From: a virus
Strand: one strand, 5' to 3'
DNA: 64,000 nt
Virus genome (UHGV): UHGV-1366919
The notes under the pieces are model-generated. The model saw only the letters and a program-made list of their open reading frames with translations. It was not told where the DNA came from and did not search any database. Below are positions 29,779 to 35,386 of this stretch, one piece after another. Positions within the stretch are counted from its first letter, which is position 1. Each line of letters starts with the position of its first letter. The translations under genes were made by a program, and so were the position numbers.

Positions 29779-30403
29779 TATATTTTTCTTTTTTCCTTAA
29801 AATATCAAGGCACTCTTCCAAAGTAAAATAAATTCGATTCTTTAACTTCAACGCATTGTCAACTCCACAATCAAAAATTTTGCCAAATGAAGAATCATCT
29901 GCATTTAAATGAGGACTGCCCCCATGACAGTGCCCGCAAAGAACTCCCAAAGCGGCATGATCCCAATCCATAATTGGAAAATGAGAAAGCCAGACATAAC
30001 ATTTCTTGGAAATTCTCAATGGAATATTAGAACCTAAAAGGGCAAGATTTTCATATTCATTATTACTGGTACCGCCAAAAATAGTATTCAATCCGGAACA
30101 GTGGTTACCAGTTAATGTATAAATCTTTTTAAATGGAAAAGTAGAAAATATTTTAATAATATCCGCAGAAGCATCATTAAAGATATTATCTCCTAGAGAA
30201 ATCAAATAAGAATCTTTATTATTGATGGCAAGATTATATAATTGGTCCAGACAATAATCAGTGTATTCAGCACAAGAGTTAAATCCTCTTGCCCCGTAAA
30301 GAAATTCTTTGTCATGATTCAAATGAAGATCAGAAACAATAAAAATATTCTTATCATTCAATTCTTTAATCAACGGGCCAATGATATTATGTCTCAGAAT
30401 CAT
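29633..30403 (-). CDS. calcineurin-like metallophosphoesterase
   Basis: VSDLHLNHD ... GDNIFND ... GNHC motifs. Confidence 0.6.
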   Translation of the reverse strand: MILRHNIIGPLIKELNDKNIFIVSDLHLNHDKEFLYGARGFNSCAEYTDYCLDQLYNLAINNKDSYLISLGDNIFNDASADIIKIFSTFPFKKIYTLTGNHCSGLNTIFGGTSNNEYENLALLGSNIPLRISKKCYVWLSHFPIMDWDHAALGVLCGHCHGGSPHLNADDSSFGKIFDCGVDNALKLKNRIYFTLEECLDILRKKEKYNDLQLHAKRKAEEHFKDDPDNEGTLSDNHSGITGFWQNDFGEGGFESV

Positions 30404-30505
30404 ATTTTTTATTTTCTTCTTCTAGCTGTCTTTTGATAACTGGATCGCCTAGCCAGTATATAAAATATTCTTTATCATCCTGAGATTGAATCCAAAGATA
30501 CTCAA

Positions 30506-31958
30506 GGCTCTGTCCTACCACAGTGTTGATTTTTAAGGAATCTTTCATGCTGTAAGACTTAATGTGTTGATGTTACCATCAAGACAATGGGTGAAGCCCC
30601 ACCCTCTACACCTTGGTCGGAGACCGACATCGGGTGCTTCTTTTCTATATCGATTTTAATTGGATTAAACATTGATTTGTGAGGTGAGAATGTTTTGCCG
30701 AGACCTCTACGCAGTATGTTAGCGGCACCATTGATGTCGGCGTTTAACATGCATCCAACAGAGCTTACAAACAACCCACGTTTCTTTCTCTTACCCATAT
30801 ATTCATCATAGTGACAAATATCCTCGTCGTCAAGGAATGAGCATTTGGAGGTGTGAGACTCATTGTGAGTTTCCACATTGATACCGGCTTCACTTGCTTT
30901 GTAAGACAACATCCAAATGAGTTGAGAATGTGGAATGCTCACAAAGTTCTGATTGTTTCGTTTACCAATGTTTACTTCCTGCTTCCATCCATCATTATGA
31001 CCGATAAAGCAGTTTCCGATTTTGTTTTCTACCATCAAATCAACCACTGAACGACTAGCCTTGTGCATATAATCTTTTGTTTTGTTATTGCGCTTTCTAG
31101 TAAGTCTCCTGAGTTTCTTTGATGTATTCATATCTCTCTCAGCCAACTTAGATACAATTTCAGCGTAAGTCTTGTTATAATATTGGTTGATGCTCTTTAA
31201 TGGTCTGCCATTAACAAGGTGGGATATAGACCCCTCGTTTGAAGTTACAGCCATTAAGTTATCAATACCAATATCTATCCCTACTGCTTTGTTGTAGTCT
31301 AAGTCAACCGGAGAAATCTTTGTTTTGTAGAAGATTTGTATCTCTATACATCCTTGCTTTGGCACAAGACGAAGCTCTTGCAAGGAGGTGAGCTTCGTTT
31401 TAATTGAAAGCTTAAAGTCCTTGCGAATGTTTATCGTTCCGTCTTTCTGGATTTTCGCGTCATTATAAGAGAAGGCAACGGAAAATAACTTATCGCCATT
31501 TGCTTCTTTCTTATACCTGGGCATCCTTGGTTTCCCAGTGAATTTCTGTGGATTCTTCTTGTATGAGTTAAGAGACCTGAACCAAGTAGAGAATGATTCG
31601 GCACACTTCTTCACAGTTTGTGCTGCTTCGTTATCCTTTAACAACGATCTAAAATCTTTGTCGTTTAACTTCCTCATTCTGGTGATTAGGTCAAACACAG
31701 AGATAAATTTCTCTTTCCTGATTATGTCTGTGTATTCAGGAATGTTCTCGTGTTTGCCACTAAACGCTTGGCGGAGAATGTATAACGTTCTATTGTAAAG
31801 AGATGTATTCAGAGAGCATTCTTGCACAGCCCAACCATAGAAGGATGTCCCTTCTTTTATCTGGTGCGTTTCAACTCTGATTGCCTCTTCTTGCATTCGC
31901 TGTTGTATATATTATACCATAGGTTTATCAGAAATCAACACTGTGGTAGGACAGAGCC
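30506..31958 (-). mobile_element. tnpB: TnpB-encoding element bounded by perfect 27-bp terminal inverted repeats
   Basis: ggctctgtcctaccacagtgttgattt at 30506-30532 is the exact reverse complement of 31932-31958. ORF 30559..31896 (445 aa) ends ...CMLNADINGAANILRRGL (RuvC-III) with a zinc finger CSFLDDEDICHYDEYMG. Confidence 0.7.
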
Positions 31959-31968
31959 TAAATGTATC

Positions 31969-32475
31969 TTAACCGTCTCTGTATTCATGAACACCCATTC
32001 TCCACTCGGGATTTTCAATAAAATCTAAAACGTTATCTAAATCTGCATAAAAATCATTATCAAAAATGATTTCATCATCATATCCATCAGAATATATTGG
32101 ACGTTGAATATAGAATTTTTCATTCGAATAATTTAAATTAAGAATATATCCAGACCTAAGTTCTAGACGTCGAATAATTTCTTTATAAGTTTCATTCTCT
32201 TGAACCTCGGCATAAGAAATATATCTGTCATAATCTTCCTGATTCTGCCAAAAAGCCGGAATACCTGATAAAACTAAAGCAAGTTTGTTATCTGGGCTAA
32301 CATCCCCAGTTTCATCAATCCACCAGTCAAAATCAATATTGACAACCTTATCTTTATCGGCTTTGGAACGAGCCCAACCTTTAAAAGATATTCTTTCAGA
32401 CTTAATAGGGCAAGTATAAGAATGAACAGAAGATGAATTAGTTTCAAATACTCCAGAACGAGTTACAATTTTCAT
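31969..32475 (-). CDS. FETNSSS-motif family protein, paralog 1
   Basis: N-terminal MKIVTRSGVFETNSSSVHSY is shared with 32479..33102 and 33519..33944. Confidence 0.45.
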   Translation of the reverse strand: MKIVTRSGVFETNSSSVHSYTCPIKSERISFKGWARSKADKDKVVNIDFDWWIDETGDVSPDNKLALVLSGIPAFWQNQEDYDRYISYAEVQENETYKEIIRRLELRSGYILNLNYSNEKFYIQRPIYSDGYDDEIIFDNDFYADLDNVLDFIENPEWRMGVHEYRDG

Positions 32476-32478
32476 AAT

Positions 32479-33102
32479 TTAGCAAGAATAATATTCCGTT
32501 CTAATAATCATGGACCGATCAAGAAGGAATAGTTTAATAAGATTTTTTAAATTGGTATAAGTTGTACAATGTTTATCAAATAATTCAGGAAAGATAAATG
32601 GATTTTCTCCATAACAACCATTATTGATAGGAATCCACCCTAGTATTTCAGTAGGATTTTCTGGTTCTTTGAACATTTCACCTAGTTCAAATCCATTATC
32701 ACCGTATTCCTGTTGATAAATTTCTTTAATATCTTTTTGGAATTGAATAAAATCAGAATGATTAATCAATTTATCATAATTTAAACAAAATGATACATCA
32801 ACTTCATAGTAATCACTGAAATCATTAGTACTCCATTTGTCTAATTTATTTTGATCATGTTTATTATAAATACAATCTTGATAAAAAGGATAATAAGACT
32901 GGCAAAGAGCTAAAAACTTATCAGAAAATGTCCATATTCCTTCAAATTCAGAATAATTAAATTGAATTTCTTTATCTAAAGAACTGACTTTTCCAAAGAA
33001 AAATTCCCAGCCCGGAACTCTTCCTACTTGACATGTATGAGAAAGAACATGTTCTGAAGAACTATTCGTTTCAAATACACAATTACGAATTACTTGTTTC
33101 AT
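32479..33102 (-). CDS. FETNSSS-motif family protein, paralog 2
   Basis: N-terminal MKQVIRNCVFETNSSSEHVLSH. Confidence 0.45.
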   Translation of the reverse strand: MKQVIRNCVFETNSSSEHVLSHTCQVGRVPGWEFFFGKVSSLDKEIQFNYSEFEGIWTFSDKFLALCQSYYPFYQDCIYNKHDQNKLDKWSTNDFSDYYEVDVSFCLNYDKLINHSDFIQFQKDIKEIYQQEYGDNGFELGEMFKEPENPTEILGWIPINNGCYGENPFIFPELFDKHCTTYTNLKNLIKLFLLDRSMIIRTEYYSC

Positions 33103-33103
33103 T

Positions 33104-33454
33104 TTAACTTATTCTGAACCAGGCTTTATAACCAGGATAATTCTGAAGGCGCTTAGAAATAGTTGTAGTATCGCATTCAAAAATATTTGCAACTTCAGCT
33201 TGAGAAAAACCCATGTAATTCAAAGTTGCTGCAACTTCAACCATACGAGGTGTAACAACTACTTTACTTTTACGTCCTCCGTCAAGTAGTTTATTTGTTC
33301 GATTATTAACAGAACTAATTTCTACTTTAGTTTTACCTTTAAGCATATTAGCCTGATTTTTATTAAATCGAAATATATTTGTAACTACTTCAACAGGAAG
33401 TATTTCAGAAAGATTCTTAGCAGCTTGGATGTCTTCTTTATAAATTCTAGCCAT
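33104..33454 (-). CDS. putative HTH DNA-binding protein (116 aa)
   Basis: C-terminal GFSQAEVANIFECDTTTISKRL is HTH-like. Confidence 0.4.
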   Translation of the reverse strand: MARIYKEDIQAAKNLSEILPVEVVTNIFRFNKNQANMLKGKTKVEISSVNNRTNKLLDGGRKSKVVVTPRMVEVAATLNYMGFSQAEVANIFECDTTTISKRLQNYPGYKAWFRIS

Positions 33455-33518
33455 TTTATAAATTAATTTATATTCAATTTAATTGAAATTAATATCTTAA
33501 GATTAAAAGGTGCTTAAA

Positions 33519-33944
33519 TTAATTCCAGTTATTATCATTATCAATCATAATTACATAATGATGTCTTAAGAAATCGACATAATCAATCCCTTCTCTATCC
33601 AATAAATTACTTGATTGATGATCAATTGTAGAAGGTTCAAAAGATTCTTTAATATATATTTCAAAATTATTGCCAAAAGCATTATGAACTACTTCAGAAA
33701 AATGTTCTATTGAATACTCATTGACTATAAAATAAACATATAGATAATTTAATTTTTGTTGAAGTGATTTAATATCATTGCCTACCCATCCGTAAGATCG
33801 AGGATATATGTACAATTTCTCATCTTTTAATAGTTTATTAAATTCTTCGTCAACAGAAATATTTTGATTATCTTGTGCCAAAGATAGCGTATGGCATGAA
33901 GATGAATTTGTTTCAAATATATTTTTTCTAATTTTCTTTTTCAT
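33519..33944 (-). CDS. FETNSSS-motif family protein, paralog 3
   Basis: N-terminal MKKKIRKNIFETNSSSCHTLS. Confidence 0.45.
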   Translation of the reverse strand: MKKKIRKNIFETNSSSCHTLSLAQDNQNISVDEEFNKLLKDEKLYIYPRSYGWVGNDIKSLQQKLNYLYVYFIVNEYSIEHFSEVVHNAFGNNFEIYIKESFEPSTIDHQSSNLLDREGIDYVDFLRHHYVIMIDNDNNWN

Positions 33945-34428
33945 TGTAAATTACTTTAAGAGGATCTACATGATTAACTTTTACAATTCTCCATTTGGAA
34001 CCATCCCAAAAATAATGGTAATCATCAAAATATTCTCCAAGATATTTCATATAAACATCTTCCATTGAAGCATGCTCATGAGCCTTGATATTATTCCATT
34101 CTTCACCTGGACGATTACAATAAAACCTTGAAGCATTTTTATCGTCAGTCTCTTCACCTTTATAAGGAGAATCATAATTTTTATCCCAAATGGCAAGACC
34201 GACGGGTTGATTCAAAAAAGAAACATCACCATGGTTTACAATCCAGTCAGCCAGCTCCTGACTATTAAAATATGTTCTAAGCTGATTAAAAAGCCAGTCC
34301 GGATAACCGTCAGAATGATTATAAACAGAACGATAAATTCCATCCGTTCCCAATACTGTAATACAAGCAGAAGTAGACATTTTAGTTTTTAATTTTGTTA
34401 AAGATTTCTTCAATAGACTTATAATCAT
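33928..34428 (-). CDS. hypothetical protein (166 aa)
   Basis: ORF. Confidence 0.45.
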   Translation of the reverse strand: MIISLLKKSLTKLKTKMSTSACITVLGTDGIYRSVYNHSDGYPDWLFNQLRTYFNSQELADWIVNHGDVSFLNQPVGLAIWDKNYDSPYKGEETDDKNASRFYCNRPGEEWNNIKAHEHASMEDVYMKYLGEYFDDYHYFWDGSKWRIVKVNHVDPLKVIYNEKEN

Positions 34429-35386
34429 TTAAGTTATATCGATCAACCGATGTAGAATTTTTTGCAAATTCTTCCTTTACCAGATCAATATACATAGTAA
34501 AACTGCCGTCATCGCCCATATAATGGGCTTTCCAATCTTCTGGAGAAACATACTTTTTAATATTAAGTTGTTCAAGTGCAAGATTATCAAATGATAGAAC
34601 CTTAAAAGACTCTAAATATTCTGGTATTTTTGCTTCAAGTTCGGCAATCTTTTTACGAATAGTCGCACCATGACAATTAATAAAATCTTTTCCCCGTCGA
34701 ATTGATTTATATCCAAGAATAAGAACCTTTAATTCTTTTGAGACCAAAGGTTCAAGATTATGAATACCGGCAATAGTATGAATTACTGCATTTTCAGGAA
34801 TATAAAGAGATTTAATTACTTTCTTGAGGTAATCAACAGAACCATTATAAGAAATACCTACGCCATAAACAAGCTTTTCCTTTTGCCATTGGCGAACTTT
34901 ATTAAGGTTTTCTTCAATTTCAATATGATGCTGGTTAACTGTAATATTTGAAATTACTCCAAGATCTTTTAAACGAATAAGAAATTCTTCAAAATCAGGA
35001 TGTTCAAAAATATTGCCTCCACCGATAGCAATTTCCTGTCCTGGATGAAGCATAGACAAAATTGGATGATTGATATTTCCATGAAGTCCGTCGACTACTG
35101 AATTTTCATGACAGAAAGCGCAACCCATATCGCATTTGTTAGTGATTTTGCAATCAATATTCTCTGGGAATTGCGCAATAAATTCATCATCTTCAGTAGT
35201 TCTGACCTTAGTACCATCTGAATAAATTTTTACATCATAATTTCCGTTCTGATACAAGTGAAGAAGGGGAGGTTCTGGAATTTTATAAATCTTCATTATA
35301 TTCTTTGAGTAAATGAAATCATTGAAATTAACCGAGCTTAAGCAATAGGTTTTTTGAGACGAATTCTTAAACATGATTAACATCAT
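34382..35386 (-). CDS. radical SAM domain protein
   Basis: ITNKCDMGCAFCHEN gives a CxxxCxxC 4Fe-4S/SAM motif near the N-terminus. Confidence 0.55.
   Translation of the reverse strand: MMLIMFKNSSQKTYCLSSVNFNDFIYSKNIMKIYKIPEPPLLHLYQNGNYDVKIYSDGTKVRTTEDDEFIAQFPENIDCKITNKCDMGCAFCHENSVVDGLHGNINHPILSMLHPGQEIAIGGGNIFEHPDFEEFLIRLKDLGVISNITVNQHHIEIEENLNKVRQWQKEKLVYGVGISYNGSVDYLKKVIKSLYIPENAVIHTIAGIHNLEPLVSKELKVLILGYKSIRRGKDFINCHGATIRKKIAELEAKIPEYLESFKVLSFDNLALEQLNIKKYVSPEDWKAHYMGDDGSFTMYIDLVKEEFAKNSTSVDRYNLNDYKSIEEIFNKIKN

Follow-up and report, generated by a model that had tools for sequence, protein, structure and literature searches.

A tnpB gene between the terminal inverted repeats of a probable IS1595-family transposon in a T4-like phage

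How does a tnpB gene come to lie between perfect inverted repeats in a phage genome? The 64,000-nt stretch of virus genome UHGV-1366919 analysed here (the window) belongs to a large T4-like phage, which encodes rIIA/rIIB, an ATP-dependent DNA ligase, NAMPT and a GroEL-like chaperonin. Within it, a gene for a 445-aa TnpB is bracketed by two 27-bp arms. An initial annotation read these arms either as terminal inverted repeats (TIRs) of a transposon or as a pre-existing hairpin into which the element had inserted. It also stated that canonical IS200/IS605 elements lack TIRs, which agrees with a 2026 review, where neither IS200/IS605 nor IS607 elements have TIRs or target-site duplications (TSDs; PMC13565253). 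Our analysis favours the transposon: with a probability of roughly 80 %, the arms are the TIRs of a 1453-bp non-autonomous IS1595-family transposon, in which the transposase gene is replaced by a cassette of tnpB and its guide RNA (omega RNA, ωRNA; also reRNA). The arms travel with the element, 8-bp TSDs flank it elsewhere, and an IS1595 DDE transposon has the same ends.

GGCTCTGTCCTACCACAGTGTTGATTT at positions 30506-30532 is the exact reverse complement of positions 31932-31958 (27/27). Even with up to three mismatches the window contains only these two copies of the 27-mer, and none was found across 100 dinucleotide-preserving shuffles. Perfect repeats around a 445-aa TnpB, as first described, are thus confirmed by sequence and shuffles for the arms and by Pfam, NCBIfam and fold for the protein. 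The complementarity extends inward imperfectly (39 nt at 87 %). A 28th complementary pair, 30505/31959, lies just outside the arms; it belongs to the flank, because other copies differ there, and the true ends are GG…CC. The 27-mer is not itself palindromic, and the arms are therefore true TIRs. The whole mobile unit (30506..31958, minus strand) is delimited by the homology limits in unrelated copies, by the empty allele L065 and by its GC content, which is 38-42 % as compared with 26-33 % for its flanks. The left-end TIR, on the 5′ side of tnpB (31932..31958, minus strand), matches the ends of the transposase-bearing element L050 and of miniature elements, and the right-end TIR, on the 3′ side (30506..30532, minus strand), recurs in the same sibling elements. 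The 3′ end of tnpB is 53 nt from the nearer transposon end.

The tnpB gene (30559..31896, minus strand) was characterized by Pfam and NCBIfam models, by alignments with its family and with Cas12f, and by a fold search. The product matches OrfB_IS605 (PF01385, 1.1e-20) and Cas12f1-like_TNB (PF07282, 9.6e-10), both above the curated cut-off, and the NCBIfam model guided_TnpB with 151 bits (cut-off 100). Foldseek with the AlphaFold model (predicted local distance difference test, pLDDT, 70.8) returned Cas12f, the TnpBs of ISDra2 and ISFba1, and mimivirus Fanzor2 at E ≤ 2e-9. The triad D208 (GIDIG), E346 and D387 (NADING) is invariant in 10 homologues down to 51 % identity, and this conserved D-E-D triad suggests an active nuclease. 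The canonical RuvC-II glutamate position ('QMERL' in Cas12f) is occupied by histidine. E346 is located exactly six residues before the invariant C352, a placement known from Fanzors and some TnpBs as the 'alternative Glu' (PMC10711439); 'RIIr' TnpB clades with NADxN appear in PMC10691335. The family alignment shows that both CxxC knuckles of the C4 zinc finger are lost, only C352 being invariant. Loss of the finger does not exclude TnpB membership, because it is known in some TnpB branches (PMC10691335).

Other copies of the element were gathered by scans with the arm sequence and with the TnpB protein; the loci and alleles found carry L and P codes. Copies exist elsewhere, in phage genomes and in metagenome-assembled genomes (MAGs) of Akkermansia. 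The same element is found in about ten unrelated contexts at 78-90 % protein identity. When the window element is aligned with L005 and L006, which lie upstream of an amidase gene in a GC-richer phage, similarity begins exactly at GGCTC and ends exactly at GAGCC. The boundaries are identical in the further phage contexts L061, L063, L064, L078, L083 and L084. Ten independent insertions are flanked, immediately beyond GGCTC…GAGCC, by perfect AT-rich direct repeats of 8 bp: TATGAAAA in the L006 lineage, AATTTATA in L007, AAAAGAAA in L018, AAAATAAA in L021, TATTCTTT in L027, AAAATTTT in L036, TAAATTAT in L042, TTTATATT in L050, TAATATAA at L084/85 (a tnpB copy in a phage) and AAAAGCTA at L030/L026 (where a miniature element of an Akkermansia MAG contains a complete tnpB copy). 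Two further insertions, L025 and L078, have TSDs matching at 7/8 and 6/8 positions. Copies with tnpB, copies with a transposase and miniature copies alike have such TSDs, in Akkermansia chromosomes and in several phage genomes. A search of the GenBank phage collection in near and distant modes gave no relatives of the locus, only two 70-nt matches within tnpB, and a relaxed scan of IMG/VR for the TIR pattern gave no additional contigs. Judged by these alignments, the 27-bp arms are the ends of a mobile unit and not a pre-existing hairpin.

The insertion can also be viewed from its empty sites. L065/L077 (IMG/VR contig 3300045988_182131) is 97-99.7 % identical to the window on both sides and is free of the element. 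Its homology to the window breaks at 31959 and 30505; the arms coincide with the insertion boundaries. At the place of the element, L065 has 283 bp of its own; they are the 5′ two-thirds of a gene of ~133 codons, which is intact there and also in the metagenomic alleles P0121-P0124. On this alignment, insertion of the window copy went together with the deletion or replacement of 283 adjacent bp at the start of the host gene, and the loss of these first 283 bp explains why the copy has no TSD. The ORF list and the intact gene in L065 and P0121-P0124 define a chimeric open reading frame (ORF) of 53 codons (30387..30548, minus strand). Fifteen element codons, from the ATG at 30548 through the right TIR, are fused in frame to the last 38 host codons. 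The ATG sits 8 nt past the tnpB stop and reads outward through the right TIR. This outward ATG (window 30533-30548 region) is in frame with the downstream host ORF in the window, L006, L063, L083 and L057; the region was compared also in L061, L064, L078 and L084, and the A-run at the inner TIR border, which varies from 5 to 7 A among copies, shifts the outward frame. A systematic restoration of downstream host genes by this ATG was considered and rejected, since about 5 of 10 contexts are in frame, not clearly above chance.

L094 is a near-isogenic, element-free relative in a second phage lineage, found via the neighbouring amidase. It has a single TATGAAAA at the amidase start, and the right junction is exact. 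The exact empty junction predicted for the L006 insertion was not in IMG/VR.

Which transposase made these ends? A TIR scan of one genome per prokaryotic species gave 38 loci, nearly all in rabbit-gut Akkermansia MAGs, with several per genome. A 351-aa ORF lies ~100 nt inside the TIR in 3 of the 38. The intact protein of the Akkermansia element L050 (L050:208-1263) matches NCBIfam transpos_IS1595 with 177 bits (cut-off 75), the IS1_IS1595_Zn domain with 30 bits (cut-off 28) and Pfam DDE_Tnp_IS1595 (1.7e-11, 44.8 bits, cut-off 27). The IS1595 family has an 8-bp TSD and a transposase with an N-terminal zinc finger and a C-terminal DDE domain; Merlin, its eukaryotic sister group, goes with GG-terminal TIRs (PMC8101967). 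Elements with the ends described here have TIRs as unit ends and the 8-bp TSD. GGCTCTG would fit the ISPna2 subgroup of ISfinder, whose ends read GGCnnTG.

L050:102-4193 is a complete TSD-bounded unit composed of TIR, transposase, a restriction-modification-like pair (275 aa and 381 aa), a 157-aa ORF and TIR. L007:288-5750, a unit of 5.4 kb between TSDs, has the IS1595-type transposase in truncated form; its cargo includes an EcoRI-type adenine methylase, a GmrSD N-domain protein and an HNH endonuclease. Because L050 and L007 carry defence-like genes between the same ends, we regard these ends as one TIR shell with interchangeable cargo. The transposase elements and the tnpB element have only the ~29-bp termini in common. 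Transposase and tnpB were not seen together in any one element, but as alternative cargos of the same ends. We infer that the transposase of the sibling L050 mobilises the tnpB element in trans.

The same ends also bound miniature elements of ~250 bp with 8-bp TSDs (L007:288-537, L018:1940-2191, L021:6777-7024, L036:432-679, and nested copies in L039 and L042). These have no tnpB. Of the tnpB element they keep exactly the final 137 nt, joined to ~85 nt of unrelated sequence. As candidates for guide-RNA genes that stand alone, they could give extra guides in trans. Further elements with these ends are of ~633 bp, ~1240 bp and, in one case, 65 bp.

The 137 nt retained in the miniature elements run from AAGAAGCACC to the right end (30642-30506, minus strand), the end at which the initial annotation had suggested an ωRNA. 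RNAalifold on 15 copies predicts three hairpins and a fourth helix, formed between TIR positions ~7-27 and the 25 nt that follow the tnpB stop, with AGAGCC and the flank unpaired. With the predicted partners 94.8 % of cells are paired, as compared with 30-45 % with slid partners, and 15 pairs have double-sided changes, as compared with 4.8±1.4 in shuffles (0/500), the structure itself being derived from the same alignment. We therefore predict, at the place expected for an ωRNA, a conserved and covarying four-helix RNA with the right TIR as its last helix. A strong σ70-like promoter for tnpB is predicted by consensus scan to overlap the left TIR (31911..31938, minus strand). Its -35 TTGATT is within the TIR and is followed by a 16-nt spacer and an extended -10 TGgTATAAT (10/12 consensus matches).

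These parts suggest how the element would work. An IS1595 transposase from a host-resident copy would move it in trans, and tnpB would be transcribed from the promoter overlapping the left TIR. The ωRNA would run through the right TIR into the flank and give each copy a locus-specific guide, by analogy with virus-borne Fanzor1. In the ascovirus Fanzor1 element, the TIR and TSD were shown experimentally to be part of the reRNA scaffold, with the guide lying ~15 nt beyond (PMC10711439). TnpB would then cut element-free alleles, for example in co-infecting phages, and this cutting would favour retention of the element or its copying by recombination.

Several observations weigh against the assignment. 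There is no IS1595 transposase in the window. The Akkermansia flanks have ~58 % GC, the window phage 32 %. TSDs are missing from the window copy and from three other phage copies (L061, L063 and L064). The zinc finger of TnpB is degenerate, and the AlphaFold model is disordered in that region. In the RNA, the double changes of the TIR helix come largely from AT-decayed copies, in which parallel G/C→A/T changes could mimic compensation. The ωRNA suggestion of the initial annotation is supported in silico by the structured, covarying RNA, although there was no match to an Rfam family in 30000-32500 at a permissive threshold. Finally, the empty alleles L065 and L094 gave no common target-adjacent motif (TAM), and the TSDs and left flanks likewise gave no consistent motif.

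Among the rival explanations, the best survivor accepts the same origin and differs in present mobility. According to it, the element no longer transposes in this phage. It arrived and spreads by homologous recombination between related phages, possibly by TnpB-triggered homing, its TIRs are a recent relic, and the nuclease is kept as useful to the element or the phage. The absence of a TSD and the replacement of 283 bp in the window copy speak for this, as does the distance between the phage GC and that of the only identified transposase-bearing host. The flanks bear on it as well. Downstream of the right end, the window and L065 differ by 6 mismatches over 1950 bp, and 5 of these are at 23-29 nt from the TIR (window 30477-30505 region; CTCAGGATG vs CCTTAGACG), with one Gln→Leu and two synonymous changes. 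On the left side (31959-32130) the first 169 nt from the left end contain 15 differences, and the ~700 nt beyond them only 2. The state of the empty allele is ancestral at these mismatches, and escape mutations in the empty allele are thereby ruled out as their source. Co-conversion with a diverged donor phage may have left this cluster, or it may reflect damage and its repair close to a cleavage site. It fits recombinational acquisition but is not proof of it: the remnant alleles P0127 and P0129 have the ancestral flank state, so the patch is not strictly linked to the element, and a second mosaic patch 0.9-1.3 kb from the element indicates that ordinary recombination is frequent here.

The fate of the TIRs gives further weight to this rival. 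TIRs are present down to 78 % protein identity, but they are AT-decayed on both sides in L081/L082 (83 %), reduced to a remnant in L057 (70 %) and absent in L056 (62 %) and at lower identity. No GGCTCTG-type TIRs were found around the gene in relatives at 62 %, 55 % and 37-52 % identity. The ORF and the first three hairpins are still intact in decayed and TIR-less copies, and the nuclease/RNA module is therefore kept in phages after the transposon ends die. Against a purely recombinational life stand the perfect TIRs of the window copy (27/27) and the clean or nearly clean TSDs of the phage copies L006, L084, L078 and L083, which point to real transposition into phage DNA. We consider it possible, though on the unlikely side, that the element has ceased to transpose in this phage.

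Two side observations concern these relatives. The ~210-kb phage-like contig ERZ27249389 NODE_11 carries two tnpB paralogues of this clade: L082, with its decayed TIRs, adjoins an intein-containing NrdD and a DnaB-like helicase, and the TIR-less L056 adjoins a tail-tube gene. L054 (Paludibacteraceae, 55 %) has a 24-nt AT-rich inverted repeat, 83 % complementary, at 1427-1450 and 2843-2866, at distances from the gene about as for the window TIRs; seen in a single genomic context, the two copies are possible transposon ends.

A second rival leaves the transposon in place and concerns the guide, which would be internal and fixed (the 25 nt between the stop and the TIR, or the TIR itself) and would target the ends of sibling IS1595 elements. 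Conservation is unbroken to the TIR end, leaving no variable guide inside the element. The segment after the stop is identical to TIR positions 7-27 at 13/21 positions (counted by eye), and in decayed copies the strongly conserved hairpins stop near the stop codon. However, this segment and the TIR are predicted to pair with one another (93 % of cells), so that neither would be free as a guide, and the inner side of the TIRs has no conserved TAM-like motif. In addition, published DDE-associated TnpBs and Fanzor1 read their guides beyond the element end. An internal guide is therefore improbable.

The third rival is an ordinary tnpB-only element of the IS200/IS605 type (IS1341 group), with subterminal hairpins taken for repeats, moved as single-stranded DNA by a Y1 TnpA acting in trans. 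The protein does match OrfB_IS605, most tnpB-only elements belong to the IS1341 group, and the distant relatives at 37-62 % identity show no TIRs. Yet IS200/IS605 elements have asymmetric ends with subterminal hairpins, insert 3′ of a fixed 4-5-nt motif and use the Y1 TnpA (PMC13565253). The element here has true TIRs and 8-bp TSDs in at least ten insertions; because of these it is, as a transposon, neither IS200/IS605 nor IS607. No conserved 4-5-nt target motif precedes the left end in the compared copies, the ends are common with a DDE transposase element, and the element contains no TnpA. We give this rival very little credence.

The weakest rival takes the arms as host sequence, a 27-bp phage hairpin such as a terminator with the element inserted in its loop, which the window geometry alone would favour and to which the AATTGGCAT/ATGCCAATT flanks of the L007 target and the position of the L006 site 20 nt past a terminator-like hairpin lend some colour; but in about ten unrelated contexts the element ends in these very arms, as does the transposase-bearing element, and L065 has ordinary coding sequence at the spot, where neither arm is matched even with 8/27 mismatches allowed, which excludes this second reading of the initial annotation.

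Adjacent deletions recur at the element (window copy, L005, L015, P0126, P0127 and P0129). L015, tried as an empty site and rejected, is a 4.25-kb deletion derivative with a solo right TIR; in P0126, P0127 and P0129 a deletion has likewise left just a part of the right end. When L005 is compared with L006 (2890-2931), L005 lacks 39 bp adjoining the left TIR, including most of the left TSD copy and half of the terminator-like hairpin. On the 1.2-kb contig P0128, the right flank follows immediately on the left-TIR side (…CCIYYTIGLSEINTVVGQSLEYLW…). Recombination between the 27-bp TIRs may have inverted the element there, or the repeat may have caused an assembly artefact. Next to the element, three adjoining paralogous ORFs of 168, 207 and 141 aa (window 31969-33944, minus strand) have the N-terminal motif (V/I)FETNSSS.H and no Pfam match. 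The block 30542-34790, which contains tnpB and these ORFs, is the one deleted in L015.

Taken together with the proposed mechanism, the non-autonomous IS1595 element could be part of a longer chain. It would be the bacterial, phage-borne counterpart of Fanzor1: an alternative-Glu TnpB captured by a cut-and-paste transposon of the IS1595/Merlin superfamily, with the right TIR co-opted as the last ωRNA helix and a new guide read beyond the end after each insertion. RNA-guided homing between co-infecting T4-like phages would follow, and the ωRNA-only miniature elements would give extra guides in trans. Within this chain, homing would have left its traces in the flank co-conversion and in a tnpB that persists once the TIRs have decayed. 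The chain as a whole is tentative, and it is rather unlikely that every link holds.

The locus is a sequence-resolved case of TnpB and its ωRNA changing vehicle, from a single-strand IS605-type transposon to a double-strand DDE transposon. Such a change is seen as the step behind the spread of Fanzors among eukaryotes. Our data set is unusually complete and comprises autonomous, tnpB-carrying, RNA-only and decayed copies, with filled and empty alleles in two phage lineages. Repeated entry into phage genomes, and a tnpB that outlives its ends, make RNA-guided homing or competition between phages testable. The protein is in addition a compact candidate nuclease, with 445 aa, no zinc finger, the alternative Glu and a short, defined RNA module.

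How does this element compare with known systems? Like the IS1341 group, it has TnpB alone with an ωRNA-like RNA overlapping the 3′ end of the gene, and its distant homologues look like ordinary members of that group. It differs in its TIRs and 8-bp TSDs, and in the absence of a one-strand pair of left-end and right-end subterminal hairpins and of a target tetra- or pentanucleotide. With IS1595 insertion sequences it shares GG-starting TIRs, 8-bp TSDs and passenger genes, and the sibling L050 has the transposase with zinc-finger and DDE domains; the window element itself has no transposase, and its cargo is a TnpB gene with a structured RNA.

The Fanzor1 of the SfAV ascovirus (Yoon et al., NAR 2023; PMC10711439) is likewise a virus-borne, non-autonomous TIR/TSD element with the nuclease only. 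Both proteins have the RuvC-II Glu six residues before the zinc-finger position, and the TIR is predicted to be in the guide-RNA scaffold here as well. Our element is from a bacterial virus, and its protein is TnpB-sized, without the Fanzor1 insertions and with a degenerate zinc finger; its RNA is a prediction from sequence. RuvC-I reads D-I-G (GIDIG), not the Fanzor DPG, and of the features that define Fanzors (DPG with alternative Glu, and a eukaryotic host or eukaryotic virus) only the alternative Glu is present in this bacteriophage protein. IS1595 is not among the Fanzor-associated superfamilies named in the accessible texts of PMC13565253 and PMC10711439.

The closest systems are the DDE-associated TnpBs. 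According to Altae-Tran et al. (PNAS 2023, PMC10691335), DDE transposases accompany six TnpB branches (DDE-1 to DDE-6), and each of the six has inverted terminal repeats; the authors also describe solo TnpBs flanked by nearly identical DDE-type ends and conclude that these are 'mobilized in trans'. These also have TnpB inside symmetrical TIRs with its 3′ end near one end. The principle is thus already published, and the initial annotation overestimated the novelty of the locus; for this reason the surprise for a specialist is moderate. The partners named in the 2026 review are ISL2, IS630 and IS1031 (PMC13565253). IS1595 has no occurrence in the accessible text of PMC10691335, supplementary tables apart, and is not named in that of PMC13565253; our full-text literature searches gave no paper that structurally links TnpB to IS1595. 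What is new are the details: an IS1595-family partner, repeated carriage by phages (mostly T4-like, and others), RNA-only miniature elements with the same ends, and pairs of filled and empty alleles.

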